The notes beneath the pieces were generated by a model. That model saw only the letters and a program-made list of their open reading frames with translations, did not search any database and was not told the origin of the DNA. A stretch of 64,000 bases of DNA from Poseidonia sp. (GTDB taxonomy: Archaea > Thermoplasmatota > Poseidoniia > Poseidoniales > Poseidoniaceae), in NCBI GenBank assembly GCA_016779705.1, contig JADHNB010000001.1:1434-65433 (forward strand), in the 5' to 3' direction. The position numbers and the translations under genes are program-made. Positions 10,319-31,158 of the stretch are shown here, piece after piece; position 1 is the stretch's first letter; every line of letters begins with the position of its first letter.

Positions 10319-10330
10319 GCATATAAAGGG
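10319..10330 (-). promoter_or_regulatory. TATA-box-like element (ATATAAA) about 25-30 nt upstream of the crtI start; candidate archaeal promoter for crtI-crtB.
   Basis: Sequence ATATAAAGGGGGG read directly. The adjacent oligo-T/A run (10333-10360) could serve as a terminator for upstream ubiB. Confidence 0.3.
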
Positions 10331-10372
10331 GGGTTTTTGTCCTAAAAAAAACTGAAAAAATAACAGTGGAAC

Positions 10373-11605: not shown

Positions 11606-11618
11606 GCCGGTCACGTCC

Positions 11619-13486: not shown

Positions 13487-13496
13487 GGGGGTGGCC

Positions 13497-14108: not shown

Positions 14109-14127
14109 GTTAGAAAATTTGCTCAAT

Positions 14128-14188
14128 TTGTATATAAACACTCGTCTTTTTCCTTTGCTGGGTTGAAACCGTTCTTGATATACTCATC
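14128..14188. promoter_or_regulatory. Divergent promoter region with two TATA-like boxes: TTTGTATATAAAC serving ribA (minus) and CTTGATATACT serving nudix (plus). Both are about 24-26 nt from leaderless start codons.
   Basis: AT-rich 60-nt island in a 60% GC background, read directly. Spacing is consistent with archaeal TATA-to-TSS distances. Confidence 0.35.
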
Positions 14189-14204
14189 CGTTGAAAAAAT
14201 AACG

Positions 14205-14696
14205 ATGTCCCAACTGCTCTGCGACCTCGGCGTGGCTACCCGAGTGGTTCGGGACGGCCACATTCTCCTCGTCCAAGAAGCCAAGGGGCGCCATGCAGGC
14301 CGATGGGGCCTGCCCAAGGGCAACGTTGACGACAACGAGAGTCCCGAGAACGCCGCCCTACGAGAGCTTCGAGAAGAAACGGGCTTGGAAGGGCAACTGG
14401 TGGGATTGGCCGGCGTACGGACGGCGTTGCAAAGCAACGGCCCTGCCGTATTCCTGTGTTACGAAGCCACGGTGACCGATGACCAGCTCCAAACCGACGG
14501 CGACGAAATTGCCTCAGCCAGGTGGTTTTCGCTGGACGGGTTGAAGTCTCTTGAGTGGGTTTCTGAAACGATGCATCAACTCGCCGTTGACGGCTTTTGC
14601 CGGTCGACCGTCCTGGTCAACCAACGGGGCTTGACGCCCCGAACCAACCCGTATGCGGTGTACCGTGCCGCTGGTGCCCACGGTAGGGGGCGGTGA
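14205..14696 (+). CDS. NUDIX hydrolase
   Basis: Nudix box GRWGLPKGNVDDNESPENAALRELREETGL (GX5EX7REUXEEXGU). Confidence 0.75.
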   Translation: MSQLLCDLGVATRVVRDGHILLVQEAKGRHAGRWGLPKGNVDDNESPENAALRELREETGLEGQLVGLAGVRTALQSNGPAVFLCYEATVTDDQLQTDGDEIASARWFSLDGLKSLEWVSETMHQLAVDGFCRSTVLVNQRGLTPRTNPYAVYRAAGAHGRGR

Positions 14697-16246: not shown

Positions 16247-16255
16247 GGAACCTCC

Positions 16256-17707: not shown

Positions 17708-20224
17708 ATGCGTCGCGCGGTGCTGCTGGGCCTCATCGCGTCGCTTCTCCTTATCCATCTCCCCAGTTCAGCCGCTGACAACACCCCCACCAGCGCCAAC
17801 GGTTTGACCGACGGTGTTTCTTCAAACGGCTATGTTTGCGACCCCGACGGCTGTTCGCCCAACGACAAAACGGACTATTGGAAAATTCAAGGCAAGCGAG
17901 GGGACATCGTTCGCGTTTCGTTCTCCGGCAGCATGAGCAACCCCGCCTGGTGGTGTCCTGGTGACGGTTGGATCGGGACCTTCACCATGGGCAGCGTGAC
18001 CTCCAACGTCGACGACGGTAACCCCTCCGCCCAGTTGTCAACCACGTTGGCCACGGCCGGCGAGGTTCTCATCAAGGTCGAGGCAGCGGATTCGTGGTGC
18101 AACGACGGGTTTGACTACACGCTCACGCCGGCCATTGACAAAACCAACCGTGACACCGACGAAGACGGGTTCATCGACACGGAAGATGACTGTGTTTTCT
18201 TGGTCGGGACCTCCACCAACGACCGAAACGGTTGCACCGATTCCGACGGCGATGGATGGTCGGACCCTGACAGCGGCTGGGGCGTTCAAAACGGCGCAGA
18301 TGCCTTTGCAAGTGAATCCTCACAATGGTTAGACTCCGACAACGACGGTTACGGTGACAACATCGAAGGGTTCCAAGGCGACCACTGCACGTACAGTCGT
18401 GGGTATTCCGATGCTGACCGCTTTGGATGCCTTGATACGGACGGCGACGGATACTCCGACCCCGACCCCGGTGGCTTGAACGGGTTTGTGCCGTGGTACG
18501 CTCATCCCGTGGGGGCGGCGGACGCCTTCTCCTTCGATAACTCGCAGTGGAACGACACGGACGAAGACGGCTACGGCGATAATTGGGCCGACCCCTCCAT
18601 CAATCAAACCCGATGGTTGTGGGGCATCGGCCAATTTGTGGACAACGCCACCAAACCCGACGCTTGCCCCTTTGTGCGTGGCGGTTCCTCTGCTGACCGC
18701 TTTGGGTGTGTGGACACGGACGGCGATTCGTATTCGGACGGTGACGAAAACTGGACGGTGAACAACGGCTCGGATGCGTTTCCCGTCGAGCCGACCCAAT
18801 GGCTTGATTCTGACCGTGACGGGTGGGGCGATAACCAAAGCGTTGGGGCGCAACTGATTGACGATTTCCCGTACAACCCCACCCAATGGCGGGACACCGA
18901 TGGAGACGGCTGGGGCGATAACCAAACCTACGGTGCCACCCAGATCGATGATTTCCCGTTCGTGCCTTCCCAATATCGGGACACCGATGGTGATGGGTAT
19001 GGCGATAATTTGACGGGGTTCGAGGGCGATGTTTGCCCTCAATCCACGCCTGAAGAGGTGGACTCCGGTTGGATCAGCCGTTACGATCGGTTGGGATGCC
19101 GTGACGTGGACAGCGACGGGTATTCCGACCCCACCGAGTTTTGGAACGCTCATCCTGACGGCTTTGCCGATGCCTTCCCGAACGACCCGTCCCAATGGCA
19201 CGACACCGACGATGATGGCTACGGCGACAACGCCGAATACTTCGACGGCCAAACTTGGCGAGCCTCCTACCGACCGGACGGCTGCCGCACCACGCCTGGC
19301 AATTCCACCTTTGACCGATGGGGCTGTCCCGACGGTGACGGCGACGGTTGGTCCGACCCCACGGCCTCGTGGTTGGCCAGTCCTGGTGGTAGCGGTGATG
19401 CGTGGCCTGAGGACCCAACGCAGTGGCACGACAGCGACGGGGACGGCCGAGGCGACAATCCACGCGGCACCACGGCGGACGTCTGTCCCGAGGTGGCCGG
19501 GACCTCCGTTGGACCTTCCTCGGGCGGGGACCGGTGGGGCTGCAAAGACACCGATGGGGACGGCTGGTCCGACCTTGGCGATGCGTTCATCCACGAACCG
19601 ACTCAATGGCGGGACTCCGACGGTGACGGCTACGGCGACCGCATGGAAGGTCACCAAGGCGATGCCTGTCCAGAGACTCGTGGCACCTCGTTGCTGGACC
19701 GACTCGGTTGTCGAGACACGGACGGCGACGGTTGGTCCGACCCAACGCCTGCTTGGCCCGCTCATCCGTTCGGGGCGGCCGATGCGTTCCCCACCGAAGC
19801 CTTGCAGTGGATGGACAGCGACCAAGACGGCTTCGGTGACCTTCCCCTTGGGGCGTTGCGAGACGACTGTCCCGAGGTTGCGGGGACGTCGACCCGAGAT
19901 GTTCAGGGCTGTCCCGATGGCAATCAAGACGGTTGGTCCGATGCGTACGGCGAATTGGCGGCGGCCATCGCCATCATGGGCGAAGACCCCGCCGCCTCAT
20001 GGCTCACCTACGCCGTCATCGGCGGCGGCTTCCTGTTGGGAGCCCTTGCCGCCTTGGTCGTGCGTGCATCACGACAACGGTCGCAGTTGATGGAACAACT
20101 CGTCGCCGACAAGGACCTGGAACTGATGATGGGGAACAACGAGCCTTCGGCGACCCCCCGATTGATTCCGTTGGACGAACTTCCGCCGTTGCCAGGCATG
20201 CCAGGGGGTGAAGAAGGTGCGTGA
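17708..20224 (+). CDS. Cell-surface protein (838 aa) with signal peptide, N-terminal beta-sandwich domain, about 11 thrombospondin-type-3-like Ca-binding repeats and a C-terminal TM anchor.
   Basis: Signal peptide MRRAVLLGLIASLLLIHLPSSAA. A reiterated unit about 60-70 aa long: CP..GTS..DRxGCxDTDGDGWSDP...AFP.DPTQWxDSDGDGYGDN. TM WLTYAVIGGGFLLGALAALVV plus charged tail. Confidence 0.7.
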   Translation: MRRAVLLGLIASLLLIHLPSSAADNTPTSANGLTDGVSSNGYVCDPDGCSPNDKTDYWKIQGKRGDIVRVSFSGSMSNPAWWCPGDGWIGTFTMGSVTSNVDDGNPSAQLSTTLATAGEVLIKVEAADSWCNDGFDYTLTPAIDKTNRDTDEDGFIDTEDDCVFLVGTSTNDRNGCTDSDGDGWSDPDSGWGVQNGADAFASESSQWLDSDNDGYGDNIEGFQGDHCTYSRGYSDADRFGCLDTDGDGYSDPDPGGLNGFVPWYAHPVGAADAFSFDNSQWNDTDEDGYGDNWADPSINQTRWLWGIGQFVDNATKPDACPFVRGGSSADRFGCVDTDGDSYSDGDENWTVNNGSDAFPVEPTQWLDSDRDGWGDNQSVGAQLIDDFPYNPTQWRDTDGDGWGDNQTYGATQIDDFPFVPSQYRDTDGDGYGDNLTGFEGDVCPQSTPEEVDSGWISRYDRLGCRDVDSDGYSDPTEFWNAHPDGFADAFPNDPSQWHDTDDDGYGDNAEYFDGQTWRASYRPDGCRTTPGNSTFDRWGCPDGDGDGWSDPTASWLASPGGSGDAWPEDPTQWHDSDGDGRGDNPRGTTADVCPEVAGTSVGPSSGGDRWGCKDTDGDGWSDLGDAFIHEPTQWRDSDGDGYGDRMEGHQGDACPETRGTSLLDRLGCRDTDGDGWSDPTPAWPAHPFGAADAFPTEALQWMDSDQDGFGDLPLGALRDDCPEVAGTSTRDVQGCPDGNQDGWSDAYGELAAAIAIMGEDPAASWLTYAVIGGGFLLGALAALVVRASRQRSQLMEQLVADKDLELMMGNNEPSATPRLIPLDELPPLPGMPGGEEGA

Positions 20225-21521
20225 AGGCCATCGTTCTTTCTCGACGTCGGTGCTTGTGTTGCTGCTTTTGACGACGGCGGCTCCCTTGGTTTCCGTTTCG
20301 GGGGAGCTGACCGCCGAGGAACGCCTTGCGGAGCGAGGCCTGACCGTTCTTGCCCTTCGAAACGACACCATCGACACCGACCAAGACGGCGACATCGATG
20401 CGGTCCGCGTCGTGGTGGTGCTCAACTCAACGGCGTCCCAAAACGACCTCATCGTGAAACTCCGCGGTCTTCACAAGGAACGAGAGGTGCTTGAGGTCAC
20501 CGAAGTTTCGTTTTCCATCCAAACCAACATCACGCTCGTTTACGATGCCTGGTCAAGAGGCGAACATCGCCTTCGCTTGGATTTCTTTGACGACGACGGC
20601 GAATTCATCGCTTCGTATCCGCTGCCAAACTTTGTCTTAGTGCCCGCCCTTCAGGTGCCGACGGTTCAACTCAACTTGAACGCCGGCGCCACCTTGCAAA
20701 CCGGTGAGGCGTGTGAGGTCGTTCGTGTGTTTAGCGACGAAACCGGTCCACGTTACGGGGAAAGCGGGACACGAACCTTCACTGGAGCCCCCTTCAGCGT
20801 CCTTGATGCGCATGGAACGCTGGATTGTTCGTCGTGGCCTGCCGGCGACTATGCCCTGCGAGAAACGTACCGCAACGGGCTTGGGCAAACCGCCGAAGCC
20901 ACCCTGAATTTCACCATCACCAACCGCCCGGCCCCCCAATTCACCATCGCTGTTTCCGGTCACGGTAACACCACCAACACACCCTGCAGTCTTGCGATGA
21001 AAACGGCCGGAGTCGATGCGGGATGGACCAAGGTTTGGCGAGTCAAAGGGGCGGTTGTTGAAGGCGCTAACACGTCCACGCTGGATTGTTCACAACTACC
21101 AGCTGGAGCCTACCTCGTCACGTTGGAGGTCATCAACGACAAGATGATCACCTCAACGGAGGGCGTCAATCTCATTCGCATGCCTTCTCCAGAGGCGACG
21201 CTCAACCGTACTCAAACGGGCCCCTCGGCCTCCTTGGGCGAAGACACGCCAACCGAATCCGTCGGTTGGCTGTCCATTGGGGTGCTGGCCTTGCTGGTCA
21301 CGTTGGTGGTCTTCGTGGCGATGGCTCGAGACCGTCGCCTCGAACCCCTTGAACTCCCGGCCTTGGGCCCGATTGCACAAGTGTTGCCTGATGGGAGTCC
21401 TGACACCATGGGCCTGCCCACCATCACGGATGACCAAGGCGTGTTGTGGCGCAAGCACCCCGACGGTCGGTTGGACTGGTGGGACAGCGAGTGGCAAGTT
21501 TGGCACGGGTGGGACGCATGA
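20208..21521 (+). CDS. Secreted/surface glycoprotein-like protein with N-terminal signal peptide, many N-x-S/T sequons, C-terminal TM helix and a Trp-rich tail.
   Basis: Signal MKKVREGHRSFSTSVLVLLLLTTAAPLVSVSG. Sequons NDT, NST, NIT, NFT, NTT, NTS, NRT. TM WLSIGVLALLVTLVVFVAMA. Overlaps the upstream gene by 17 nt. Confidence 0.5.
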   Translation: MKKVREGHRSFSTSVLVLLLLTTAAPLVSVSGELTAEERLAERGLTVLALRNDTIDTDQDGDIDAVRVVVVLNSTASQNDLIVKLRGLHKEREVLEVTEVSFSIQTNITLVYDAWSRGEHRLRLDFFDDDGEFIASYPLPNFVLVPALQVPTVQLNLNAGATLQTGEACEVVRVFSDETGPRYGESGTRTFTGAPFSVLDAHGTLDCSSWPAGDYALRETYRNGLGQTAEATLNFTITNRPAPQFTIAVSGHGNTTNTPCSLAMKTAGVDAGWTKVWRVKGAVVEGANTSTLDCSQLPAGAYLVTLEVINDKMITSTEGVNLIRMPSPEATLNRTQTGPSASLGEDTPTESVGWLSIGVLALLVTLVVFVAMARDRRLEPLELPALGPIAQVLPDGSPDTMGLPTITDDQGVLWRKHPDGRLDWWDSEWQVWHGWDA

Positions 21522-22396
21522 GTCCGTTGGAAGCGTTGGGTGTGGGCTTTGGCGCCTTGGGGTTGCTCGTTGGCATGCGCCTTTTCTACGTCTGGCGAAC
21601 CCGCATCCGACCCCTTCAACCCTCCTTGGATTTGGAGTGGGCGGTGGATTGCGAGCACCTCACCACCGCCACGGTCGACGGCAACGACATCACGTTTCAC
21701 ATGGTACGAGATTTCACGTGGCGGACCACGCGTGACCGTGACGAAAACTGGGCCGAGTCGGTCCATGTCCGCCTTGATGAATTGAAGGACGTGTGGTTCA
21801 TCGTCGACCACTTTCATGCGTTGAAAGGCCTCGCTCACACCTACCTCACCTTTGAATTCGAAGACGGAACTTGCTTGTCCTTCTCCTTCGAGACCCGGCG
21901 TGAAAAAGGCGAGCGATACCATCCTTGGGACGGGTTGTGGCGAGCCTACGAACTCTACTTGCTGGTCGGCTTCGAGCGCGACGTCACCGGTTTGCGGACC
22001 CACGGTCGCAGAAACAAGGATTACATGTTCAGGGCCATCACCCCTCCTGGCAAGGACAAGGACTTGCTCATGGGGCTGATCGGCAAGCTGAATCAACTCG
22101 CCGTCGAGCCCGAGTGGTACCATTCCTTGCTGACGACTTGCAACACCTCCATTGTTCGCATTGTCAATCAGGTCACCCCGGGACGCATCCCGTTCCTCTG
22201 GCGAAATTTCTTACCGGGCTACACCCCAAAAGCGGCGTTCAAACTGAAACTGATCGAGGATTGGGGCGGTCTTGAACAAACCCTCGCTTCAGCCAGAATC
22301 GACGAACGCGCTCAGGCATGGGACGGGGAAGAGGATTACTCCGCTATGCTTCGCTCCTTCCTTCCGTCATCGCCGAAGAGCGAGGATGCACCATAA
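21518..22396 (+). CDS. Membrane-anchored DUF4105-like protein
   Basis: N-terminal TM (LGVGFGALGLLVGMRLFYVW), then a region resembling DUF4105 (LTFEFEDGTCLSFSFETRREKGERYHPWDGLWRAYELYLLVGFERDV). ATGA overlap with the upstream gene. Family assignment is from memory, not a search. Confidence 0.4.
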   Translation: MSPLEALGVGFGALGLLVGMRLFYVWRTRIRPLQPSLDLEWAVDCEHLTTATVDGNDITFHMVRDFTWRTTRDRDENWAESVHVRLDELKDVWFIVDHFHALKGLAHTYLTFEFEDGTCLSFSFETRREKGERYHPWDGLWRAYELYLLVGFERDVTGLRTHGRRNKDYMFRAITPPGKDKDLLMGLIGKLNQLAVEPEWYHSLLTTCNTSIVRIVNQVTPGRIPFLWRNFLPGYTPKAAFKLKLIEDWGGLEQTLASARIDERAQAWDGEEDYSAMLRSFLPSSPKSEDAP

Positions 22397-23003
22397 GCAA
22401 ACGGCCTTCGGAGAACTCAACTTCAACCCTGGAGCCCAATGAACGGTTGTGAAGACCGTGCGACCCTGTCTCCAAGGCGGTCTTGTCCATCGGATAGGCA
22501 CACCCCGTGAGGGTGATGTTGTTGGCAAACGGGACGGCGAACAGGGAGAACGTTTGGTGCGGCTCCATCTCTATAGAATAGGCCTCTCCGGGACGAAAAA
22601 ACCGGAAAACATGGGTTGAGGTCAGCGATTGGAGGTCCATCTCCTGTTCTGCGCACACCAGCATGTTAGCCCAAGCGTGTTGCGGGTCACCGTCGTGAAC
22701 ACCGACCAAAACGCCTTTCGAGGCGCCTCTCGCCTTCGCCAGCTTGAGGGCTTTGGAGAGGTCGTTGGTGTTTGGGTCCCTGACCTCCACCACCTCACCC
22801 CCTCCTCGAGCGAAGGTCGCAAGGATCTCGGGCTCCACACTGTCCAGGTCCCCGACCACGGCATCAACGTGAATGCCAAGCTCAACGCACCGGTTGAGGG
22901 CACCGTCGCAAGCCAACGTGAAATCCACCTGGTTTTGCAGTTCTCGAATCGTCGCTGGCTCGCACCATGGGCCGTTGGCGAGGATGAGCCCAACGCGCCC
23001 GGT
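22344..23003 (-). CDS. Thiamine pyrophosphokinase
   Basis: TPK catalytic motifs VVGDLDSV (GDxDS) and DPNTNDLSKAL (DxxxTDxxKAL). Start chosen at the internal Met (MTGRVGLILANG). Confidence 0.6.
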   Translation of the reverse strand, partial: TGRVGLILANGPWCEPATIRELQNQVDFTLACDGALNRCVELGIHVDAVVGDLDSVEPEILATFARGGGEVVEVRDPNTNDLSKALKLAKARGASKGVLVGVHDGDPQHAWANMLVCAEQEMDLQSLTSTHVFRFFRPGEAYSIEMEPHQTFSLFAVPFANNITLTGCAYPMDKTALETGSHGLHNRSLGSRVEVEFSEGRLLMVHPRSSAMTEGRSEA

Positions 23004-23054
23004 CATGCTGAGGCCTAGCCGCACGTCTTTCTCAAGGCAACGGTGAACGCGTCC

Positions 23055-23073
23055 TGACCCCCGTAGGGGGTCA
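23055..23073. promoter_or_regulatory. Perfect GC-rich hairpin/palindrome TGACCCCC-GTA-GGGGGTCA in the divergent region, about 50 nt upstream of the giant gene start.
   Basis: 8-bp inverted repeat with 3-nt loop, read directly. Confidence 0.3.
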
Positions 23074-23121
23074 ACGCCTGAATCAACAATGATTTTCAAG
23101 GTCGGAGGCTGTGAGGCGTCC

Positions 23122-26100
23122 ATGTCGGACGCCGATACGCAATCGTTTCACATCAAAAGCGTTCTGCTGGTGCTTCTGTTTCTGCTGTCCATCGCCAGCC
23201 CAATCGTCCCTGCATACGGGCCGTCTGAGGTCCTCGAGCAAGCCTCTCCATCGGCTCGCATGGCGCCGTTTAACCTCGCTTCTGGCTACGGCCATGAACT
23301 GGCCGGGACGACGGTGACCGTTGACGGCCTCGACAACGCCTTGGTGAGGGAGGAATCGATGTTTGACTACTGGATCACCACCGAACTCAACAACTCCAGC
23401 ACCGAGCATCACGGCACTCCCGACATGAAACTCACCCGGGCTGACATGGAGCACTACTGCTGGTCGACCGAAGAAGGGTCCATCCGAACCGCCATTCACC
23501 GCCCGAATGGGGCATGGAGCACGACCTTGGTTGACACCGTTGCCGCCACGAATACCTCATCGTTGGTTGATTGCGCCATTGCCGTGACGGGGAACGAGCT
23601 TCCTCGGGTGCTTTATGCAGACGGTGCTGACCTGAAAATGGGGCGGTACGCACGCGAGAGCGCCACGTATTACGACGGGCCACGTTGGCACACTCGGACC
23701 ATCATGGAGAATGTTGAGCCAACCCACCTTGAACTTGAAATCACGCCTGAAGGCGTGGAGTGGGGCTTGATGCGCACGGTGGACGGTGCCTTGCACCAAG
23801 TGAACTTCAGCGGGGCGTACTGGACCTCCTTCCTGCTGGATGTTGGCCCCATAGGGGACGATTTCGAATTGGCCATGGATGACAACGGCACCGCTCACGT
23901 TCTCTACACGCGTTCCAACGCCCAAGAAGTCGTGCTCCTGCGCGTCAGCGGCATGGAACGTGACGTCCGGATTCTCGAGCGAAACAGCGACCTGGTGGAC
24001 GCTTTGGGCATGGACCTTGATGCCAATGCCGTCGAGCAAATCGCCACCGCCACGCAAACCGGGCCGTCGTTTTCCATCAACCTCATTCGTTCGCTCGCTG
24101 GGCAAGACGCCGGACGTGTTGACCCCGTCCCCCTGGATGGACGAGAAGGCGTTGAAGATGAAGAAGAAGGTTCGTTGTTGATGGCGGATTTCAACAACGA
24201 CGGCTTTGATGATTTGGCCATCGCCACCCCCACCGCTGACCTCGTTGGTTTTACCGACAACGGCCGAGTGGACGTTTACTTCGGTTCTTCCGCAGGGCTG
24301 AGTGCGACGCCCGATGCCATCCTCGCCGGCGCCAACGACAACGCCCGATTCGGTCAAGGCTTGGATGCCGGGGATTACAACCACGACGGCATCGTTGATT
24401 TGGCCGTTGGCTCCCCTGGTTGGCAACCAACCGGTCAAACCGATCTTCACAACGGCCAGGTGAGCGTTCATCTTGGCGGGCCCTCTGGCCTTCAATCCAC
24501 ACCATGGTGGACCGCGAACGGTTCGGAAAACGAATCGCTAGGGGCTGTCCTGACCACCTTGGAGCGAACCTCAGAAGCCGACGGATTGGCTGCGGCGGCC
24601 CACGGCTACACGCTCGAAGTGAGCGAATCTCAAACCAACGTCGGCAAGGTGGTGCTGTACGGCGGTGGAACCGATGCGATGGCCATGGAGCGAAACCTCA
24701 CTCAATCCAAGTCCGGACCGATGTTTGGCCGCTCGTTGGAAGGCTGCGATATCAACGGTGACGGTTTGGATGAGTTGATCGTGGGCAACACGGGAACTTT
24801 TGCCAGTTCCCTGGGCTATTCGTCGATCGAGTACTACTACGGCAACGCCTCCGGCTACGCAGGAACCCCCGAGCACACGCTTGAATCGCTCTCCCAGGGT
24901 CGTCTGTTTGGCCACAACATCGTCTGCGCTGGCGACCTCAACGGTGACGGGTACAACGAACACCTGTTGACCGAACCGTTCAACAGCACGCAAACCGTGT
25001 TTGGCACCGGTGTCTTGTGGCTCTACAACGGCACCTCCGGTTCGCTCCCTTCCGAAGCGGACTGGAAATACTTCCCCAGCATCGGCAATCAAAAAATCGG
25101 CGAAGCCATTTCACCTGCAGGCGACATCAACGAGGATGGGTACGATGACCTCTACATGAGCAGCCAAATGGGGTCGAAAGCCGGCCGATTGGAGATTTTC
25201 CTCGGTTCAGCTAACGGATTGCGGTCCGACAAACAGTTGCTGGCCGATGGAAACGGGTCCGAACAACTCGGCTTCCGCCTCGCCAGCAACGGCGACCTCA
25301 ACGGCGACGGTTTGAGTGAAGTGGTCTTTTCCCAGAGGACCTTCGAACGAGGCGACGCCTTTGCGCTCAATTACGTGATCCTCTCCGAGCGAGATTGGGA
25401 ATCCATTTCGTTTGAGTACACCGGGTCCATCTCCGCCCTGGACCTCGCCACGGCGGCACGAGGCGAGACCAGCATGGCGTTCGTTCATCAGGACAGCCTC
25501 CGTTCGTACGTTGGAAAACTGGAGCACATGAACGACGGCACTCCCTCCGGTCAATGGGTTCATCAAACCGTTGAACGCACCACCACGTCGAACGTCACCG
25601 TTGAATTTGGCGTTCGTTCCTCGGGCCAACCCTTGGTGGTCGTTGAGGACGACGCTTCGATCCGTTTGCATTCAACCACTTCCATGACCGCCGTCCAACA
25701 AGAGGTGGCGACCACCGGGACCATGGGTCAATTTATCGGTTCGAACGTCAACCAAGATAACGAACAAGTTCTTGCTTACACTTCGGGGGCCGGCAATCAA
25801 ATCTTTGCAACCGAGCAATCTTCAACGGGCTGGTCGACCGATTTGGTGCGGACCAACGCCGCGTTGGCCAACGGCATTGAAGTGCTCTTTGACAGCGCCG
25901 ACGTCCCTCGTTTGGTTTACCGCCACAACACCACGAGCCAACTTGAGATGGCGGTCGGTGGGAGCAGTTGGTCCCTGACGCCCTTGGGCAATGCAGGGGA
26001 CGCCGTTTCGTTGCAACACCCCGCGGTGATGCTTGCCAACGACACCCTCGCCGTGGCCCTCCTCTCCTCCAACGGAAGCGCCACCAACCTTGCCCTGTGG

Positions 26101-29100
26101 ATGCATGACGGCACCGCACTCAGCGAACAAATCATCGCCAACGCCAGCGATGTCGAGGCTGAACTCGGTCTCGCGGTGCTGGCCAACGGCTCATTGCTCG
26201 TGGCTTCGCTGAATCAGTCAGGCGCACTCCGGTTGTATGAACAGTGGCCCGGTGACACCGCTTGGCAAACCCACACCCTCGTTCAGCCCAGCGGCACCAA
26301 CGGGGAGTATCGTCTCGATCTTGAGGGCGGCACAACGCCCGTCTTGGCGGTTCGTGCCAACGCCGTCTCCTCCATCTTGATGCCCAACGGCACCGGCGAG
26401 TGGAAGGCCGTTGCGGAGCGTCCAGCGGCGGCTCACGACGGGGCGTGGGACGTTTTGGTGGTCAACGACCATCTCTTGTTGTTGACCAGTGATGAAAGCA
26501 CCCATCAACTGACCGTGAACACGCTTGAACTCAGCAGCGTTCAGCAAAGTTACTCTCCTTGGATGTCGGCCAAGTTTGGTGACGTCCTCGTCACTCACAA
26601 AGTGGATGCTGCATTCGACACGAACGGCACGGTGCACATGGGGTACTGGGACGAGGTTGACAACGACGCTCTTTTGTTGCGACTTTACGTTGACCAAGAC
26701 CGGGACCTCGTGTTTGACCTGATGGACGACCTGCCCACGGTGGGCAACCAATGGGCGAACAGTGACGGCGACAATTTCGGTGACAACCCGCTGGGGCCGC
26801 TGCCGGACCAATGCCCCACCGTGGCTGGGCTTTCGTCCTACATCATCTTTGGATGCGTTGATTACGACACCGATGGTTTCACCGACAGCATTGACGGATG
26901 CGATTCCCAAGGCGGGACGTCATGGATTGACCGATTTGGATGCGAAGACCTCGACCAAGACGGATGGTCCGACAACGGCGCCACCTACTACGGAGGTGAC
27001 GTGTACAAAGGAAACTGGAAGCAGGCCCTTGATACCGACGGCGACGGCTTCGGCGATAATCACGGCGTTGATTGCTGTTCAACGGTTCTCGACCCCAACG
27101 CTGGACCCGGTGACCTGTTCCCGTACTTGGCCTCCCAATACGCCGATTACGACGGTGACGGGTTCGGTGACAACGACACCGACGCCGTGCACGGAGACTT
27201 CTGTCCCTGGGATTACGGTGAATCGTGGCGAGACCGAAACGGATGTTTGGACTCGGACGGCGACGGTGCAAGCGATCCGTCTGCTGAAGGGACCTTCTTC
27301 GAGTGGAACACCAGCCGAGGGGCGGATGTTTGGCCCTTTGACGCCACACAGTGGAAGGACACGGACGGCGACGGCTACGGTGACAACCAATCGGAGAATG
27401 CGACGTCTCCCGACCGCTTCCCGCAACGCATTGTGGCGGCCAACGACACCGACGGCGACGGCTTCCCGGACAATTGGACCGCCTTTGCCTCGCTCGACGA
27501 TGACGGGGACGGGGTGCAAAACCTCGACGACCGTTGCGTGGATTCCGACGCCGCCTTGGCCATCGACGCCGAGGGCTGCGACACGGACCAAGTGGCCAAC
27601 ACCACGTTCCCGAGAACCTCATACAAAGCCGGGCTTGAACTTGACCAATGCCCCGAAGAATGGGGCAACTCCAGCCTCCCGGTCAAAGGCTGTCTTGATT
27701 CCGACGGTGACGGCTACACCGACCAATACACCTACACGGTGAACGAGACGACGGGGCTGCGAGAAGGCCAAACCGGCGATGCCTTCCCCTTCATCAAATC
27801 GCAAGTTCAAGACACCGACGGTGACGGATTTGGCGACAATCCCGCCGGCGAACAAGGCGACCAGTGTCCCTTTGAACCCGGTGTACTCAACGGCACCGAA
27901 GGGGTCGGCTGCCGCCTCATCGATGTCAACGACGACGATGGCGACGGGGTCATCAACGACGTGGATGTCCTGTGCCCGAACAGTCCGTTGGGCGAGCCGG
28001 TGAACGAGGAGGGTTGTGCTCAATCCGAACTTGACGATGACGATGACGGCGTCAAGAACAACGCCGACCTCTGTGCAAATTCCCCGGTCGCAACAGCCGT
28101 GGACGAGGATGGATGCACCAACGAACAGCGAACCTCCGACTCTGACGGGGACGGATTGAACGACCCTCAAGACCGCTGTCCTGGAACCGAGGCGGGTGCT
28201 GATGTTGATGAGAACGGTTGCTCTCAAGGGCAACGAGACAGCGACGGGGACGGTCTCTCCGACCTTGACGATGCCTGCGACGATACCCCGCCTGGTTTCC
28301 CCATTCTCGCCAACGGTTGCACCGACGAGAGCGCTCTCACCGTCGATCTTGACGGTGATGGATATGCAGGCCTCTACACCTACGACCTCGACCCGGACAC
28401 GGGGCTTCACGTCAATCAAACGGGCGATGCCTTCCCCAGTGACCCCACCCAATGGTTTGACCGGGACGGCGACGGCTACGGTGACAACAGCGATGGTACC
28501 AATGCAGACCATTGCCCCGACGAAAACGGGACGTCCTACATCGATTTCCTGGGTTGTTACGACGACGGTGACGGTTGGAGCGATGCCAATGAACCCGAAG
28601 CCTTGCGAGGCAATCCAACCCAATGGAAAGACACGGATTTCGATGGTTTCGGGGACAATTGGGGCGACCCCGCATGGACGGCCCTGCGAGATCCGTCATG
28701 GCCCGGAGAGTTTGTTGAAGGGGCCACCAACGCCGACTTTTGTCCCAAAACGACCTTTGGCTTGCAAGTCGATGACGAAGGTTGCCATCCCTCCGAACGA
28801 GATTCGGATTTGGACGGCGTGATGGACGATTCCGACAACTGCCCCGACGACCCCAAAGGCGTGGACGGTTACGAAGACGGTTGCCCCTACATTCCTTTAT
28901 CCGGCGACGGCGATGAGGGCCTGTTCGGCGTTGATGCTGGCACGCTCATGGTCATCGCTGGCGGCGGCGTCTTGGGCATCTTGGTCTTGATGTTGGTGGT
29001 GCGCCTTGCGCGGAGGGGAGGTGGTGACGACGAGGACGACGACGATTACGACGACTTTTTCGACGAAGACAACGAAGAAGAGAGTTTCCTCGACACGTTG

Positions 29101-29595
29101 GACGCCAAGCGGGCTGCACCAACCCGGGCTCGTCCATCGGCCAATCAACGGGCTTCTGCCCCCTCCGGTCGCGGCCCCAGCGCCGGGCCCTCAACCCCCG
29201 GACCCGGGGGTCCTCCAAAGCGAAGCGGTGCCGGTCCTCCTCAACGCGGAGCAGGCGGTCCGCCCCAACGTGGCCCCGGAGGCCCACCTCGTTCTTCGGA
29301 TGAACCGCCCCGTCAATCCTCGTCGGCCTCCGCACAAAAAGTTGCGAAGAAGAAGTCCGTGACGGCGGTCGACGAGAGCCCTTCAGCCAAGGTTCGTAAA
29401 GCGAAGATCCAAGTTGACCTCTCCATCTTTGAAGACTGGCAAGCTGACGACCGTGAGTCGGCCGTTGATTGGGTCGTGGGCGCCTTCGGCGACGGTGACG
29501 AAGAGCGTACCGTGCTCATGCAATTGCAAGAAACAGGGTGGACCGCTGAACAATCTCGGGCCATTTGCAACCTTGCGAAGAACAAAGGGGCTTGA
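23122..29595 (+). CDS. Giant cell-surface protein (about 2157 aa). Order of parts: signal peptide, N-terminal region, FG-GAP/integrin-alpha-like beta-propeller repeats, long beta-rich middle, about 25 TSP3-like Ca-binding repeats, TM anchor, acidic plus Pro/Gly-rich cytoplasmic tail.
   Basis: Signal MSDADTQSFHIKSVLLVLLFLLSIASPIVPAYG. FG-GAP motifs (DFNNDGFDDLAIATP, GDYNHDGIVDLAVGSP, CDINGDGLDELIVGN, GDLNGDGYNEHLL, GDINEDGYDDLYMSS, NGDLNGDGLSEVVFSQ). TSP3-like units (DTDGDGFGDN, DSDGDGLNDPQDRCP, etc.). TM LMVIAGGGVLGILVLMLVV. Tail DDEDDDDYDDFFDEDNEEE and PGPGGPPKRSGAGPPQRGAGGPPQRGPGGPP. Confidence 0.8.
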   Translation: MSDADTQSFHIKSVLLVLLFLLSIASPIVPAYGPSEVLEQASPSARMAPFNLASGYGHELAGTTVTVDGLDNALVREESMFDYWITTELNNSSTEHHGTPDMKLTRADMEHYCWSTEEGSIRTAIHRPNGAWSTTLVDTVAATNTSSLVDCAIAVTGNELPRVLYADGADLKMGRYARESATYYDGPRWHTRTIMENVEPTHLELEITPEGVEWGLMRTVDGALHQVNFSGAYWTSFLLDVGPIGDDFELAMDDNGTAHVLYTRSNAQEVVLLRVSGMERDVRILERNSDLVDALGMDLDANAVEQIATATQTGPSFSINLIRSLAGQDAGRVDPVPLDGREGVEDEEEGSLLMADFNNDGFDDLAIATPTADLVGFTDNGRVDVYFGSSAGLSATPDAILAGANDNARFGQGLDAGDYNHDGIVDLAVGSPGWQPTGQTDLHNGQVSVHLGGPSGLQSTPWWTANGSENESLGAVLTTLERTSEADGLAAAAHGYTLEVSESQTNVGKVVLYGGGTDAMAMERNLTQSKSGPMFGRSLEGCDINGDGLDELIVGNTGTFASSLGYSSIEYYYGNASGYAGTPEHTLESLSQGRLFGHNIVCAGDLNGDGYNEHLLTEPFNSTQTVFGTGVLWLYNGTSGSLPSEADWKYFPSIGNQKIGEAISPAGDINEDGYDDLYMSSQMGSKAGRLEIFLGSANGLRSDKQLLADGNGSEQLGFRLASNGDLNGDGLSEVVFSQRTFERGDAFALNYVILSERDWESISFEYTGSISALDLATAARGETSMAFVHQDSLRSYVGKLEHMNDGTPSGQWVHQTVERTTTSNVTVEFGVRSSGQPLVVVEDDASIRLHSTTSMTAVQQEVATTGTMGQFIGSNVNQDNEQVLAYTSGAGNQIFATEQSSTGWSTDLVRTNAALANGIEVLFDSADVPRLVYRHNTTSQLEMAVGGSSWSLTPLGNAGDAVSLQHPAVMLANDTLAVALLSSNGSATNLALWMHDGTALSEQIIANASDVEAELGLAVLANGSLLVASLNQSGALRLYEQWPGDTAWQTHTLVQPSGTNGEYRLDLEGGTTPVLAVRANAVSSILMPNGTGEWKAVAERPAAAHDGAWDVLVVNDHLLLLTSDESTHQLTVNTLELSSVQQSYSPWMSAKFGDVLVTHKVDAAFDTNGTVHMGYWDEVDNDALLLRLYVDQDRDLVFDLMDDLPTVGNQWANSDGDNFGDNPLGPLPDQCPTVAGLSSYIIFGCVDYDTDGFTDSIDGCDSQGGTSWIDRFGCEDLDQDGWSDNGATYYGGDVYKGNWKQALDTDGDGFGDNHGVDCCSTVLDPNAGPGDLFPYLASQYADYDGDGFGDNDTDAVHGDFCPWDYGESWRDRNGCLDSDGDGASDPSAEGTFFEWNTSRGADVWPFDATQWKDTDGDGYGDNQSENATSPDRFPQRIVAANDTDGDGFPDNWTAFASLDDDGDGVQNLDDRCVDSDAALAIDAEGCDTDQVANTTFPRTSYKAGLELDQCPEEWGNSSLPVKGCLDSDGDGYTDQYTYTVNETTGLREGQTGDAFPFIKSQVQDTDGDGFGDNPAGEQGDQCPFEPGVLNGTEGVGCRLIDVNDDDGDGVINDVDVLCPNSPLGEPVNEEGCAQSELDDDDDGVKNNADLCANSPVATAVDEDGCTNEQRTSDSDGDGLNDPQDRCPGTEAGADVDENGCSQGQRDSDGDGLSDLDDACDDTPPGFPILANGCTDESALTVDLDGDGYAGLYTYDLDPDTGLHVNQTGDAFPSDPTQWFDRDGDGYGDNSDGTNADHCPDENGTSYIDFLGCYDDGDGWSDANEPEALRGNPTQWKDTDFDGFGDNWGDPAWTALRDPSWPGEFVEGATNADFCPKTTFGLQVDDEGCHPSERDSDLDGVMDDSDNCPDDPKGVDGYEDGCPYIPLSGDGDEGLFGVDAGTLMVIAGGGVLGILVLMLVVRLARRGGGDDEDDDDYDDFFDEDNEEESFLDTLDAKRAAPTRARPSANQRASAPSGRGPSAGPSTPGPGGPPKRSGAGPPQRGAGGPPQRGPGGPPRSSDEPPRQSSSASAQKVAKKKSVTAVDESPSAKVRKAKIQVDLSIFEDWQADDRESAVDWVVGAFGDGDEERTVLMQLQETGWTAEQSRAICNLAKNKGA

Positions 29596-29652: not shown

Positions 29653-31158
29653 ATGGTGGATGAACCCTCATCAAATTCTCCCACCATTGAAGTCGATGAA
29701 GCCGCGGCTTACTTCGGCGTTACCGAATCCTCCGACGTGCTTCACGCCATGATGGCCATGCCAAGGGAACAAGCCATGATTCAGTTCTTTGAGTTGCTCT
29801 CCGACATCGTTCTTCGCCCCGGTGACTTTGACTTTGAAGCGGCCAGCGAGCGGATGCAATGCGAAGGCGGCGAGATCTACTATCTCGTTGCCGGTCACCT
29901 CGGTCTGATGAGCATGCCCGACCCGATTCTGCAAGCCTTGGGCATGCCCGATTCGAATGGAGAGGCCTCCGGTTCAGCCGTCGGTTCCATGGATGAACAG
30001 CAACGGGAAGCGTTGACGTCGATGGCCGACCCCATGCGGATGATGAAACTCTTCGCCGTGGCCCAGCAAACGGGTGGAAGTGCGGAAGTGCAAACCTACC
30101 TCTCAACCCTTGAAGGCCTCCTTGCCGATGTCGGCTCGTCCATCCCTGCGTTGGCCACGGTCCATCGGGAGTTGGACGCGGCGCTCGATGTCGCCGGTCA
30201 TGTGCTGCCCATCGCTTCGCTGGCCAGCGGTGCAGCTTCCGCAGCTTCGGTTGACGTCCCTGAGACCGTGGCCCTCCCCGAAGCGCCTCCCGAACCTGAA
30301 CCGGAACCTGCGGCAGCGCTGGAAACCACGCCTTCCCCTTCACCGGCCCAAGACCGCGTACCGTTGCCAGGGCAGGCAGCGGTCGCAGCGCCTCCGTCCG
30401 AGGAACCCACGGAATCAATCCCCCTACCCTCCGCTTTGGTGGCCTTACCCGACGTTGCCAAAGAAGCCGAATCCGAACCCGTGATCAACGTGGAGAACGA
30501 CCGGGAAGTGGCCAGAGCCACCCAAGATGCCTTCGCTGGAGCCTTCAGTTCTCAACTTGAACCCAAGCCCGTGGTCCAACCACCTGAACCCCCCGCCGAA
30601 CCCCCTGAAGAGGAAGAGTTCGTCAGCGCCGCCGAGCACTTCATCGCCGCCGATGAAGACGGCAGCGGTGCCTTGGACGTTGAAGAACTCGCCCGTGCGA
30701 CCGGGACCTCCATTGAAGAGGCCACCGAACTCCATGCTCAAGCCGACATCGACGGTGACGGAGTGGTCTCCCTCTCCGAGTTTATCGCCTCACCAGCGGC
30801 GGAGAAGACCGCTGGTCTGCCCAAACCCGTCGCCCCCGTCCGCCGCCCCTTGGGCCAGCCCGGCCAGGCCGCTGCACCACCCAATCCAGTGCAGCAGCGC
30901 CCGCAACCGCTTCAACCGTCATCGCACCCTCCAATGGGTCAGCAACCCATGCAGCCTCAAGGCTGGCAACAACAACCTCTGCAGGATCCTCAAAGCTGGC
31001 AACAACAGCCCATGCAACCCCAGGGTTGGCAGCAACCCCAACGACCGTTGGTCCAGCCCACCATTCGTTCAGGTATCCACTGTCGGGGTTGCGGCATCGG
31101 TTTGGACCCGTATTGGAGATTTTGTCCCGTTTGCGGGCAGCAAAACCTCGGATACTGA
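29653..31158 (+). CDS. Acidic protein with an EF-hand pair, a Pro/Gln-rich low-complexity repeat and a C-terminal zinc ribbon.
   Basis: Canonical EF loops DEDGSGALDVEE and DIDGDGVVSLSE. Repeat QQPMQPQGWQQQPLQDPQSWQQQPMQPQGWQQPQ. Zn ribbon CRGCGIGLDPYWRFCPVCGQ. Start ambiguous (29629 or 29653). Confidence 0.6.
   Translation: MVDEPSSNSPTIEVDEAAAYFGVTESSDVLHAMMAMPREQAMIQFFELLSDIVLRPGDFDFEAASERMQCEGGEIYYLVAGHLGLMSMPDPILQALGMPDSNGEASGSAVGSMDEQQREALTSMADPMRMMKLFAVAQQTGGSAEVQTYLSTLEGLLADVGSSIPALATVHRELDAALDVAGHVLPIASLASGAASAASVDVPETVALPEAPPEPEPEPAAALETTPSPSPAQDRVPLPGQAAVAAPPSEEPTESIPLPSALVALPDVAKEAESEPVINVENDREVARATQDAFAGAFSSQLEPKPVVQPPEPPAEPPEEEEFVSAAEHFIAADEDGSGALDVEELARATGTSIEEATELHAQADIDGDGVVSLSEFIASPAAEKTAGLPKPVAPVRRPLGQPGQAAAPPNPVQQRPQPLQPSSHPPMGQQPMQPQGWQQQPLQDPQSWQQQPMQPQGWQQPQRPLVQPTIRSGIHCRGCGIGLDPYWRFCPVCGQQNLGY

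Follow-up and report, generated by a model that had tools for sequence, protein, structure and literature searches.

The 64-kb window analysed, from Poseidonia (MGIIa), carries on its plus strand a giant gene for a surface protein. Its open reading frame, listed at 23089-29595 (2168 aa), is real. On sequence grounds, ATG 23122 is a better start than ATG 23089, because the N-termini of orthologues align from that methionine and because an AT-rich box, GATTTTCAAGG, is conserved in the 33 nt that precede it. From ATG 23122, the start also used in the first-pass annotation, the coding sequence spans 23122-29595, stop codon included, and encodes 2157 aa. Full-length orthologues form at least 88 clusters of 35-96% identity and 2050-2190 aa. 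A search for homologous architectures in archaea, as had been suggested, found relatives in 200 species-level genomes, Poseidoniales without exception. The hosts are uncultured, abundant marine archaea. Codon bias of the gene is ordinary (ENC 45.8, window range 40.5-55.2), a value compatible with very high expression and equally with its absence.

The computed layout comprises a Sec-type N-terminal signal, a three-propeller head, a stalk of ~700 aa, one TM helix and a 193-aa tail. The features described in the first-pass annotation lie at, or a few codons from, the positions given there and are far above chance, but several details of its domain list were wrong, including the unit count, the TSP3 label and the domains it missed. 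The putative signal peptide or uncleaved signal anchor (23122-23220, plus strand) coincides with a Kyte-Doolittle peak. Its h-region is SVLLVLLFLLSIAS (23158-23199), and the pattern KS.LL..LFL..L.SP is kept in orthologues, which agrees with the signal peptide proposed earlier, whether cleaved or not.

The head consists of three propeller-type domains, all encoded on the plus strand. The N-terminal one (23311-24093), which lies in 300 residues previously left unannotated, is all-β with ~22 strands in the AlphaFold model (pLDDT mostly 80-95) and gave no match in a Pfam scan. It is followed by an integrin-alpha-like, seven-bladed FG-GAP β-propeller (24118-25356) with six DxNxDGxx[DE] loops, predicted to bind Ca2+. 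Pfam FG-GAP matches at 68.2 bits (cut-off 22.1) over 5 stretches, and FG-GAP_3 at 37 bits. The six D-x-[ND]-x-D-G-x-x-[DE] loops are spaced by ~60 aa (0.008 expected from shuffles), and their Asp and Gly are invariant in 85 sequences. The propeller had been placed at about 24180-25330; both the Pfam score and AlphaFold, which found a 7-bladed integrin-like fold, confirm it. What had been called a long β-rich region is real and corresponds to the third propeller-type domain (25363-26694), modelled as all-β with ~36 strands; it contains a ~45-54-aa internal repeat and has no Pfam family above threshold. The N-terminal and third domains are weakly related (hhalign probability 82%, E 1e-5).

The predicted Ca2+-binding repeat stalk (26749-28887, plus strand) comprises 705 aa, of which 137 are Asp, and has a net charge of -141. 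It contains 20 DxDxDG units, 18 exact (D.D.DG) and 2 degenerate; shuffled sequences give a mean of 0.74 exact motifs and a maximum of 5. Three unit types can be distinguished: QWxDTDGDGYGDN, CP..G..GC-DSDGDGWSDP and the TSP3 C-type DxDxDGxxNxxDxCP. The 28 Cys form 14 pairs, 14-15 residues apart, that alternate with the Asp-rich loops. The stalk model has a pLDDT of 70-90 and almost no regular secondary structure. Of the ~25 TSP3 repeats initially claimed, the DxDxDG units are real, but they number 20 and only ~7 of these clearly resemble bacterial TSP3-type repeats. Whereas FG-GAP scored above its Pfam cut-off, TSP_3 reached only 16.5-18.3 bits on the stalk, under the cut-off of 25, and the label is therefore limited to 'TSP3-like'. 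The sole near-significant fold match from Foldseek was 5wtl_C (E 2.7e-3, 29% identity), and no eukaryotic thrombospondin was matched by Foldseek or PDB sequence comparison. By NCBIfam, the giant protein partially matches the TSP3-repeat parts of the models anchor_PA1041 (E 1.3e-10) and TraB; MtsD is matched instead by the 838-aa protein encoded upstream.

A single TM helix (28936-29013, plus strand), followed by RLARRG (positive-inside), has its hydrophobic core at aa 1953-1971 and is modelled as a helix at 1950-1975 (numbering from the ORF start at 23089), in agreement with the earlier placement at ~28921-29010. The ectodomain is enriched in N-glycosylation sequons, with 33 against 15 +/- 3.4 expected, and the tail has none; a check of sequon density had been proposed. 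The assignment as a type-I surface protein with an FG-GAP propeller, a Ca-binding stalk, one TM helix and a 193-aa tail is supported.

The tail consists of an acidic/aromatic patch, a variable basic Pro/Gly linker and a three-helix end domain, all on the plus strand. The juxtamembrane patch, DDEDDDDYDDFFDEDNEEESFLDTLD (29026-29103), is conserved in kind in all orthologues. The Pro/Gly/Ser/Ala-rich linker (29104-29400, ~100 aa) is disordered (pLDDT ~30) and basic (19 K+R versus 4 D+E), and harbors GPP[KQ]R repeats at 29206-29298. It varies in sequence and length across orthologues, with gaps and a mean identity to the query of 0.31-0.35. The first-pass annotation correctly reported the acidic patch and the repeats, but the weight it put on the PPQRG repeats was misplaced, as these vary freely among orthologues; the conserved parts are the patch and the end domain, which it overlooked. 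This 64-aa domain (29401-29592) is preceded by a basic KVRKAKI and has the consensus …DLSIFEDWQ..DR.SAVDWV…ER..LMQLQETGW.A.QSRAI…. Mean identity to the query over the last ~70 aa is 0.70-0.75, and the model shows three helices with a pLDDT of 82-94. No Pfam or PDB match was obtained, PEX14 N-domain appearing only at E > 2. Of 1.84 billion representatives, only 66 proteins matched the domain profile, namely orthologues of ~2000-2145 aa and shorter entries, nearly all apparent C-terminal fragments of orthologues. By these searches, the domain is specific to the Poseidoniales surface-protein family and previously undescribed. Judged by its conservation, the tail is under selection. Since the end domain is conserved and confidently folded in the model, a cytoplasmic binding partner is likely. 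The transmembrane coupling suggested earlier is plausible but unproven, the partner being a candidate only. Such coupling had also been called unusual for prokaryotic adhesins; two neighbouring surface proteins likewise have conserved cytoplasmic tails, which therefore represent a local habit of the lineage and not an isolated peculiarity.

The giant gene belongs to a cluster of genes for TM-anchored surface proteins, and this arrangement persists even in the locus of the most distant orthologue examined. Glycosyltransferase genes adjoin this cluster in three of the four loci compared, and in more distant loci it adjoins GT2/GT4 glycosyltransferases and a 1600-aa beta-helix/PKD protein. The giant gene is immediately followed, in the same orientation and in 74 of 74 loci, by an EF-hand/zinc-ribbon gene (29653-31158, plus strand), identified by Pfam EF-hand and the locus alignment. 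Its 501-aa product has no signal peptide. The N-terminal ~190 aa form a conserved domain, which a Pro-rich linker joins to an EF-hand pair; a Gln-rich linker then leads to a CxxC…CxxC zinc ribbon at the C-terminus. The spacer of 41-98 nt contains a conserved GCTTAAATGA and GGAGG, and a T5 run is absent from all 77 loci. Co-transcription of the two genes is not established because the spacer has its own conserved TATA-like box. We infer the EF-hand/zinc-ribbon protein as a candidate cytoplasmic partner of the tail. Adjacency is weak evidence for this, because gene order is also conserved for unrelated neighbours (TPK, M29, M32), and hhalign detected no relation between the tail and this protein.

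We compared the giant protein with several known systems. With the integrin alpha head it shares seven FG-GAP blades and DxDxDGxxD-type Ca2+ hairpins, and with integrin alpha as a whole the type-I topology, one TM helix and a cytoplasmic tail. However, its FG-GAP propeller is not N-terminal but flanked by two other propeller-type domains and has six Ca2+ loops, whereas integrins have three or four. The Ca2+-repeat stalk replaces the thigh/calf Ig-like legs, the GFFKR motif is missing, and the 193-aa tail has its own folded domain. Without leg domains, GFFKR or a beta-subunit-like gene nearby, membership in the integrin family was rejected. Bacterial TSP3-like proteins (Capnocytophaga OmpA-like 5wtl, PA1041 anchor lipoprotein, Myxococcus TraB, MtsD) share with it DxDxDGxxDxxDxCP runs of Ca2+-binding units that lack regular secondary structure. 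In the giant protein, which is archaeal, anchored by a TM helix and devoid of an OmpA or peptidoglycan-binding domain, this pattern occurs in only ~7 of 20 units, and the QWxDTDGDGYGDN and CP..GC-DSDGDGWSDP types are unmodelled by Pfam. The eukaryotic thrombospondin/COMP signature domain has Asp-rich Ca2+ loops, disulfides and the C-type motif DxDxDGxxDxxDxCP in common with it, but EGF repeats and the TSP_C lectin domain are absent and no PDB sequence or fold match was found. With Pfam TSP_3 also below threshold, the thrombospondin family was likewise rejected. Of the integrin/thrombospondin-like combination originally described, the integrin-alpha-like propeller and the Ca-binding stalk stand, but the protein belongs to neither family. 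Full-length Foldseek ranked DDB1/CPSF160-type proteins first (E 1e-13 to 1e-15), which also have three consecutive propellers within ~1150 residues. TM-scores of merely 0.14-0.28 indicate a different mutual arrangement, and these are cytosolic or nuclear scaffolds with WD40-like blades; homology is not implied. The Haloferax S-layer glycoprotein and Staphylothermus tetrabrachion hold, as the giant protein would, a large N-glycosylated ectodomain off the membrane by a C-terminal anchor, but no sequence or fold relation to them was detected. To our knowledge, neither has a folded cytoplasmic domain, unlike the giant protein.

The most likely reading of the giant surface protein is that of a stalked, Ca2+-dependent adhesin or envelope protein whose cytoplasmic end serves for docking. 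With moderate confidence, we take this Poseidoniales-specific, probably N-glycosylated type-I membrane protein to work at the cell surface in that Ca2+-dependent, stalked form, either as an adhesin or as part of the envelope. Seawater contains ~10 mM Ca2+. The stalk would there be Ca2+-loaded and disulfide cross-linked, a semi-rigid rod that may keep the propeller head away from the membrane. The head would bind an external ligand, which is probably a glycan or a particle or cell surface if the FG-GAP propellers of other prokaryotes and of fungi are a guide. On the inside, the three-helix domain on its flexible linker might dock the protein to a cytoplasmic partner, for which the invariably adjacent EF-hand/zinc-ribbon protein seems the best candidate; by docking, the surface protein would be fixed in place or clustered, or its state reported. 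Thrombospondin-annotated genes in Poseidoniales have previously been read as adhesion markers (PMC6461757).

A structural, S-layer-like role instead of adhesion is a less probable alternative. As a core, apparently single-copy glycoprotein, the protein would build or support the outer canopy of the cell, its Ca2+ stalk setting the width of a pseudo-periplasm and its tail serving merely as an anchor. Order-wide conservation, as expected for an envelope component, and constant length fit this role, as do the C-terminal TM anchor and sequon enrichment also seen in archaeal S-layer glycoproteins, the position beside two further TM-anchored surface proteins in a conserved cluster, and the glycosyltransferases and beta-helix/PKD protein that adjoin this cluster in more distant loci. 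Full-text literature searches, moreover, found no S-layer protein described for Poseidoniales. However, codon bias is ordinary, a conserved folded cytoplasmic domain is needless for a simple anchor, and lattice formation is unreadable from sequence; the structural and adhesive roles are also not mutually exclusive.

It is rather unlikely that the protein acts as an integrin analogue, a receptor for transmembrane signalling or mechanical coupling. In that case, binding of ligand or Ca2+ by the ectodomain would alter the state of the tail, whose three-helix domain would engage the adjacent cytoplasmic EF-hand/zinc-ribbon protein, and the acidic/aromatic patch might be an intramolecular or competing ligand. 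The tail anatomy conserved in all orthologues, its family-specific domain and a neighbour that is conserved end to end, lacks a signal peptide and is invariably separated by a short spacer without oligo-T are consistent with such a receptor. Against it stand the negative hhalign comparison, the TATA-like box of the spacer and the general conservation of synteny, and one TM helix with a disordered linker of ~130 residues is ill suited to pass on conformational signals. A surface-tethered enzyme, with a catalytic site in a propeller (e.g. of a polysaccharide lyase or another propeller enzyme) for the extracellular polymer degradation by which MGII are known to live, appears very improbable: although proteins and saccharides are broken down by the heterotrophic MGII (PMC9258230), Pfam and NCBIfam match no enzyme family anywhere in the protein, and non-enzymatic integrin heads clearly outrank all its other structural neighbours.

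Upstream of the giant gene, the AT-rich box GATTTTCAAGG (23091-23101, plus strand) lies ~20 nt from the start codon, and orthologous loci whose proteins are 36-64% identical have a TTTTCAAGG/TTTTCAACC box equally far from the ATG. The box is a putative TATA-like promoter element, which is read as 'MIFKVG' by gene callers that place the start at ATG 23089. The thiamin pyrophosphokinase gene and the giant gene are divergent, and the intergenic region that separates them also harbors a perfect palindrome, TGACCCCC-GTA-GGGGGTCA (23055-23073), a candidate operator that occurs only once in the window. It is found once per locus, at the same relative place, in five of the six loci compared, and an exact copy lies upstream of the giant gene in 44 of 59 species loci.

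The giant surface protein is encoded by one long open reading frame on the + strand of the window, listed at 23089-29595 (2168 aa; residues are numbered here from this ATG). The first-pass annotation had placed the start at ATG 23122 (2157 aa), and this start is preferred because the N-termini of the orthologues line up from that Met, with the consensus MA………KS.LL..LFL..L.SP. The start at ATG 23089 was rejected since its 11 added codons cover a promoter-like box and are missing in most orthologues. This AT-rich box, GATTTTCAAGG (23091-23101), is conserved within the 33 nt 5' of ATG 23122, and orthologous loci with a protein identity of just 36-64% also have it ~20 nt 5' of their start codon; we read it as the putative promoter of the gene. 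Gene callers that start at 23089 render the box as 'MIFKVG'. The codons of 23089-23121 ('MIFKVGGCEAS'), which cover the AT-rich box TTTTCAAGG and stand at the N-terminus in many database gene calls, are probably not translated, and public orthologue models beginning with MIFKVG are thus probably too long at their N-terminus. A gene-call artefact or chimera was rejected on the basis of 88 full-length orthologues.

The intergenic region that separates the giant gene from the divergent thiamin pyrophosphokinase gene contains a perfect 8+3+8 palindrome, TGACCCCCGTAGGGGGTCA (23055-23073). The palindrome occurs once in the 64-kb window, an exact copy is found in 44 of the 59 species loci, and its position is the same in loci whose proteins share only 36-64% identity; it is likely a transcription-factor operator. 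Taken as listed (22344-23123, - strand, 259 aa), the kinase reading frame would run into the 5' end of the giant gene. Kinase orthologues comprise only 207-220 residues, so translation probably begins at an ATG at ~23006, which would give a divergent intergenic region of ~115 nt.

The protein begins with a hydrophobic segment typical of a signal peptide. The predicted transmembrane (TM) segment was recovered as one further hydrophobic segment, modelled as a helix at aa 1950-1975 and followed by RLARRG. The ectodomain is enriched in N-X-S/T sequons (33 versus 15 ± 3.4 in shuffled sequences), the tail contains none, and each orthologue has 21-44. The helix, the RLARRG sequence and the sequon distribution together fit a protein whose N-terminal part is outside the cell and N-glycosylated and whose C-terminus is cytoplasmic. 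A PGF-CTERM sorting signal was also considered: the 'GLFG' preceding the TM helix is superficially alike, and the candidate was rejected because 193 residues follow the helix. No PGF-CTERM match was obtained for the protein with NCBIfam.

All six FG-GAP motifs listed in the first-pass annotation were found in the translation, and the Pfam matches are significant (FG-GAP, 68.2 bits for a cut-off of 22.1; FG-GAP_3, 37 bits). An AlphaFold2 model of the head, covering aa 45-1240 and computed with 85 sequences, is beta throughout, with a mean pLDDT of 87.5 and a pTM of 0.71. Foldseek superposes the head on isolated integrin alpha heads with TM scores of 0.68-0.70; over the full head, the best matches are the triple-propeller proteins DDB1 and CPSF160, with E-values of about 1e-13 to 1e-15 and TM scores of merely 0.14-0.28. 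From the model and these matches, the head thus consists of three propeller-type domains: an N-terminal one (~aa 75-335), a seven-bladed FG-GAP propeller (~aa 344-756), and a third (~aa 759-1202). The first and third domains have no Pfam family; they are related to one another (hhalign probability 82%, E 1e-5) and show no relation to the FG-GAP part by hhalign. Strand counts in the model suggest ~6 blades for the first and ~8-9 for the third. Six blades of the FG-GAP propeller carry a D-x-[ND]-x-D-G-x-x-[DE] loop, where 0.008 are expected from shuffling, and the Asp and Gly of these loops are invariant across the 85 sequences, while the seventh blade, at ~aa 495, is degenerate. The seven-bladed FG-GAP propeller that had been proposed as integrin-alpha-like is confirmed.

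The stalk (aa 1221-1933) harbors 18 exact D.D.DG motifs, for a shuffle mean of 0.74 and a maximum of 5, plus two degenerate ones; the DxDxDG units described earlier are therefore present, their number being 20 and not about 25. With 137 Asp, the stalk has a net charge of -141, and its 28 Cys form 14 pairs at a spacing of 14-15 residues. Three unit types alternate along it: '…DAFP.DPTQW.DTDGDGYGDN', 'CP…G.S…GC.DSDGDGWSDP', and a thrombospondin C-type unit, 'DxDxDGxxNxxDxCP…VDxxGC', of which there are approximately seven. Pfam TSP_3 remains under its gathering score of 25, with 16.5 bits when the whole protein is searched and 18.3 bits when only the stalk is, precomputed PF02412 matches exist for only 5 of the 92 orthologue clusters, and a phmmer search of the stalk against PDB sequences found nothing. 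The stalk model (pLDDT 70-90) has hardly any regular secondary structure. Its single near-significant fold neighbour is 5wtl_C, the periplasmic part of Capnocytophaga OmpA (Foldseek E 2.7e-3, 29% identity), which we take to carry TSP3-like repeats. Among NCBIfam models, anchor_PA1041 (E 1.3e-10) and TraB (E 7.7e-5) were matched in their TSP3-repeat parts, both partially and far under the full-length cut-offs. The label TSP3-like is thus fair for part of the stalk, clearly so only for the ~7 units of the third type, and the remaining units are a repeat type that is not modelled in domain libraries.

The anatomy of the cytoplasmic tail was derived from an alignment of 89 sequences. A conserved juxtamembrane acidic/aromatic patch, composed of D/E runs with Y/F/W and then SFLD.LD, precedes a basic linker (19 K+R versus 4 D+E) of ~100 residues with a high content of Pro, Gly, Ser and Ala. 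The acidic run and the GPP[KQ]R repeats noted from the sequence were both found; the PPQRG repeats belong to the linker, which is free to vary in sequence and length (identity 0.31-0.35, many gaps). A basic stretch, KVRKAKI, connects the linker to a terminal domain of ~64 residues with a mean identity to the query of 0.70-0.75. AlphaFold pLDDT is ~30 for the linker and 82-94 for the terminal domain, which is predicted as three helices.

We performed a search with a profile of the terminal domain against 1.84 billion representative proteins, which retrieved only 66 proteins. The full-length ones are all orthologues of 2000-2145 aa with the domain at the extreme C-terminus, and nearly all the shorter entries look like C-terminal fragments of the same family, containing the TM helix, the acidic patch or stalk repeats. 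The domain has no relative in Pfam or the PDB. Given this range and its conservation, it is a new, family-specific cytoplasmic domain under purifying selection, which provides the strongest argument for a cytoplasmic binding partner. Resemblance to PEX14 was discarded, as the PEX14 N-domain and other small helical bundles appear at Foldseek E > 2, which is not significant. A DNA-binding HTH or Myb domain is not supported either, with E-values of only 0.11-0.16 for 2 of 25 members and more acidic than basic residues, and a relationship with the EF-hand protein encoded downstream was rejected (hhalign probability 1.3%).

A full-length search returned 92 clusters with 87-100% query coverage and 35-96% identity, 88 of which are 2050-2190 aa long. 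Where clusters are named, the label is 'VCBS repeat-containing' or 'FG-GAP-like repeat-containing protein' and the source is Candidatus Poseidoniales or Poseidonia, and public records label the orthologues only 'FG-GAP-like/VCBS repeat-containing' or 'hypothetical'. Outside these clusters, matches are limited to the FG-GAP fifth of the query and belong to bacterial multidomain proteins. With the C-terminal-domain profile and one genome per species, relatives were detected in 200 genomes, the best match being 97% identical and from a Poseidonia sp., which places the window in Poseidonia (MGIIa); among the 80 of 200 matches listed, all are Poseidoniales MAGs except three contigs binned into bacterial MAGs, which bear the same archaeal locus. 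The gene is widespread across Poseidoniales and apparently single-copy. Its codon bias (ENC 45.8) is ordinary for the window and uninformative on expression.

The giant gene belongs to a conserved cluster of surface-protein genes, and no other surface protein encoded there is as large. The genes are ordered as follows: an 838-aa Ca-repeat TM protein, a 437-aa TM protein, an Lnb_N-domain protein, thiamin pyrophosphokinase (opposite strand), the giant protein, an EF-hand protein, an M29 peptidase (opposite strand) and an M32 peptidase. This order is kept in loci where the giant protein is 64%, 43% and 36% identical, and the portion upstream of the giant gene is also kept for an orthologue that is more distant again and whose contig stops shortly downstream of that gene. 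In more distant loci, the genes directly upstream encode a 1600-aa beta-helix/PKD protein and glycosyltransferases of the GT4 and GT2 types. A divergent kinase gene precedes the giant gene in 58 of 59 species loci, and the EF-hand gene lies directly downstream on the same strand in all 74 of the 74 loci whose sequence extends far enough.

Translation of the EF-hand gene from ATG 29653 (29653-31158, + strand) gives a 501-aa protein without a signal peptide. Its ~190-aa N-domain (CEGGEIYYLVAGHLGL) is joined by a Pro-rich linker to an EF-hand pair, which a Gln-rich linker connects to a C-terminal CxxC…CxxC zinc ribbon, and all these parts are conserved; comparison of the N-domain with PDB sequences gave nothing meaningful. 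ATG 29653 is preceded by GGAGG, and the listed start at TTG 29629 is probably wrong. The spacer between the giant and EF-hand genes measures 41-98 nt, never contains a T5 run, and includes a conserved GCTTAAATGA box and GGAGG. Co-transcription is thus possible, and a promoter of its own is equally possible for the EF-hand gene.

The 838-aa protein (17708-20224) is built nearly throughout from the Ca2+-repeat units that also form the stalk of the giant protein, as a stalk without a head. It starts with a signal peptide, and its C-terminal TM helix is followed by a short cytoplasmic tail containing a conserved IPL(D/S)(E/Q)LPP(L/V)P motif. It has no Pfam family, and its only NCBIfam match is a weak, partial one to the MtsD cell-cohesion protein. 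The TM-anchored 437-aa protein (20208-21521) bears a strongly conserved Trp-rich motif of ~45 residues in its cytoplasmic C-terminus, G.LWRQHPDG..DWWD….W..W. The motif bears a superficial resemblance to a WW domain, which might bind the Pro-rich tails; neither Pfam nor PDB profiles support this, and it is retained as no more than a lead. The Trp-rich motif and the PPLP and GPPxR motifs of the neighbouring tails hint at a possible cytoplasmic interaction network.

The likeness to integrin alpha that had been proposed holds for one domain. Both proteins have a seven-bladed FG-GAP propeller, and the six D.[ND].DG..[DE] loops of the giant protein, predicted to bind Ca2+, correspond to the Ca2+-binding DxDxDGxxD hairpins of integrin blades. 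The Ig-like thigh, calf-1 and calf-2 legs of integrin alpha are absent from the Pfam matches of the giant protein, which has a propeller-type domain and a Ca-repeat stalk instead, and whereas integrin alpha ends in a short tail with GFFKR, here RLARRGGGDDEDD… follows the TM helix in a tail of 193 residues. GFFKR is absent from the protein and every orthologue shown, and no VWA or integrin-beta family occurs among the annotated neighbours in the window or the orthologous loci. The protein does not qualify as a thrombospondin: Pfam TSP_3 is under threshold, neither EGF-like repeats nor TSP_C are matched in Pfam, and no thrombospondin appears among the Foldseek matches. Tandem DxDxDGxxDxxDxCP units, ~7 in the giant protein, are shared with bacterial TSP3-like proteins (OmpA-like, PA1041, TraB), but the architecture is not: there is no match to an OmpA-type peptidoglycan-binding domain, and a TM helix in an archaeal host replaces a lipoprotein anchor. 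Substrates of archaeosortases (PGF-CTERM) terminate in a PGF motif followed by a TM helix and a few basic residues, unlike a protein with 193 residues after its helix. The giant protein is a lineage-specific variant of FG-GAP/Ca-repeat surface proteins and would work like a stalked adhesin.

Based on the computed domain order, folds, Ca-loop motifs and their invariance, topology indicators, tail conservation, taxonomic range and synteny, we favour, with some reserve, a stalked Ca2+-dependent surface protein with a ligand-binding head and a partner-binding tail. In seawater, the 20 stalk loops and the six propeller loops would be Ca2+-loaded and the Cys pairs oxidised, resulting in a semi-rigid stalk that would present the three-propeller head. 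Analogy with integrins and with lectin-type FG-GAP propellers suggests that the head may bind a ligand outside the cell, probably a surface or a glycan, and the terminal three-helix domain would bind a cytoplasmic partner at the end of its flexible tether. The other readings overlap with this one and are not exclusive alternatives. A structural, S-layer-like envelope role is a minority possibility to be taken seriously: the giant protein shares a C-terminal membrane anchor and dense N-glycosylation sequons with the functional class of archaeal S-layer glycoproteins, and a full-text literature search found no S-layer described for Poseidoniales. A surface-tethered enzyme seems highly improbable.

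True outside-in coupling through the EF-hand/zinc-ribbon protein is unlikely, more so than an envelope role. Here, the giant protein would be the outer half of a coupling device of separate origin from integrins: its Ca2+-loaded ectodomain would bind particles or cells and the three-helix domain would recruit the EF-hand/zinc-ribbon protein, and perhaps also the conserved cytoplasmic tails of the two neighbouring surface proteins; we regard this scheme as speculative. The invariable adjacency of the two genes agrees with it, but adjacency alone is weak evidence for a functional pair, since unrelated neighbours are equally syntenic. If true, attachment at the surface would be tied to a Ca2+-responsive factor inside the cell, in the archaea that are most abundant in surface-ocean plankton. 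The tail domain and the EF-hand/zinc-ribbon protein form a concrete, testable pair with which to address a possible link between adhesion at the archaeal surface and the cytoplasm.

Among the planktonic archaea of the surface ocean, Poseidoniales (Marine Group II) have been described as the most abundant, with widespread 'thrombospondin genes' taken as evidence for adhesion (PMC6461757). Protein-family modules specific to the order include calcium-binding domains (PMC9258230), and archaeal propeller proteins with an integrin-alpha-like architecture exist (bioRxiv 10.1101/2020.04.29.069435). Prior literature touches the topic only generically; in the literature searched, we found no description of the giant protein, its triple-propeller head or its cytoplasmic domain, and no report of cultured Poseidoniales representatives. 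The protein recognized in the first-pass annotation is real and was largely correctly described. What is new are the two unmodelled propeller-type domains, the Ca-repeat types unmodelled by current domain libraries, and the conserved cytoplasmic domain with an EF-hand/zinc-ribbon gene invariably adjoining. Owing to its presence in 200 species genomes, its constant length among orthologues and its size within the cluster, the giant protein is a prime candidate for a main envelope component, a structure for attachment to particles or phytoplankton, or a virus receptor. As a kind of protein it is no surprise, and it offers a well-defined lead into the cell surface of a globally dominant uncultured archaeal order.

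Several observations concern related proteins and public assemblies. P0120 is a further Poseidoniales protein, 2331 aa in length, to which Pfam assigns RCC1 and laminin-G-like domains. It aligns with ~22% of the query at 28% identity, likely in the stalk, and the tail-domain profile search did not find that domain in P0120. If the stalk is what matches, the Ca-repeat stalk and its TM anchor would serve Poseidoniales as a reusable chassis for different heads. The orthologue P0038 (L001/L015, JAYQOB010000004.1) as called ends in unrelated basic sequence (…LRKRNPERRFAKRK…), and tblastn located the conserved tail domain on its contig at 88% identity, which points to a frameshift in the assembly or gene call. 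Poseidoniales locus contigs L038, L075 and L081 are found in MAGs labelled Verrucomicrobiales, Salipiger bermudensis and Rhodobiaceae, most likely through binning contamination of the public assemblies. Finally, GT4 is directly 5' of the surface-protein cluster in the distant loci L002 and L006, with one small ORF between in L004, and in the window ~16 kb separate GT4 (121-1419) from the 838-aa gene. This stretch (within 121-17650), as judged by comparison of the loci, is a lineage-specific insertion or rearrangement; it includes a 1214-aa ORF resembling methionine synthase by its translation, and Pfam matches to amine oxidase, ABC1 kinase, a TrmB-like regulator, epimerase and photolyase (weak, below cut-off).
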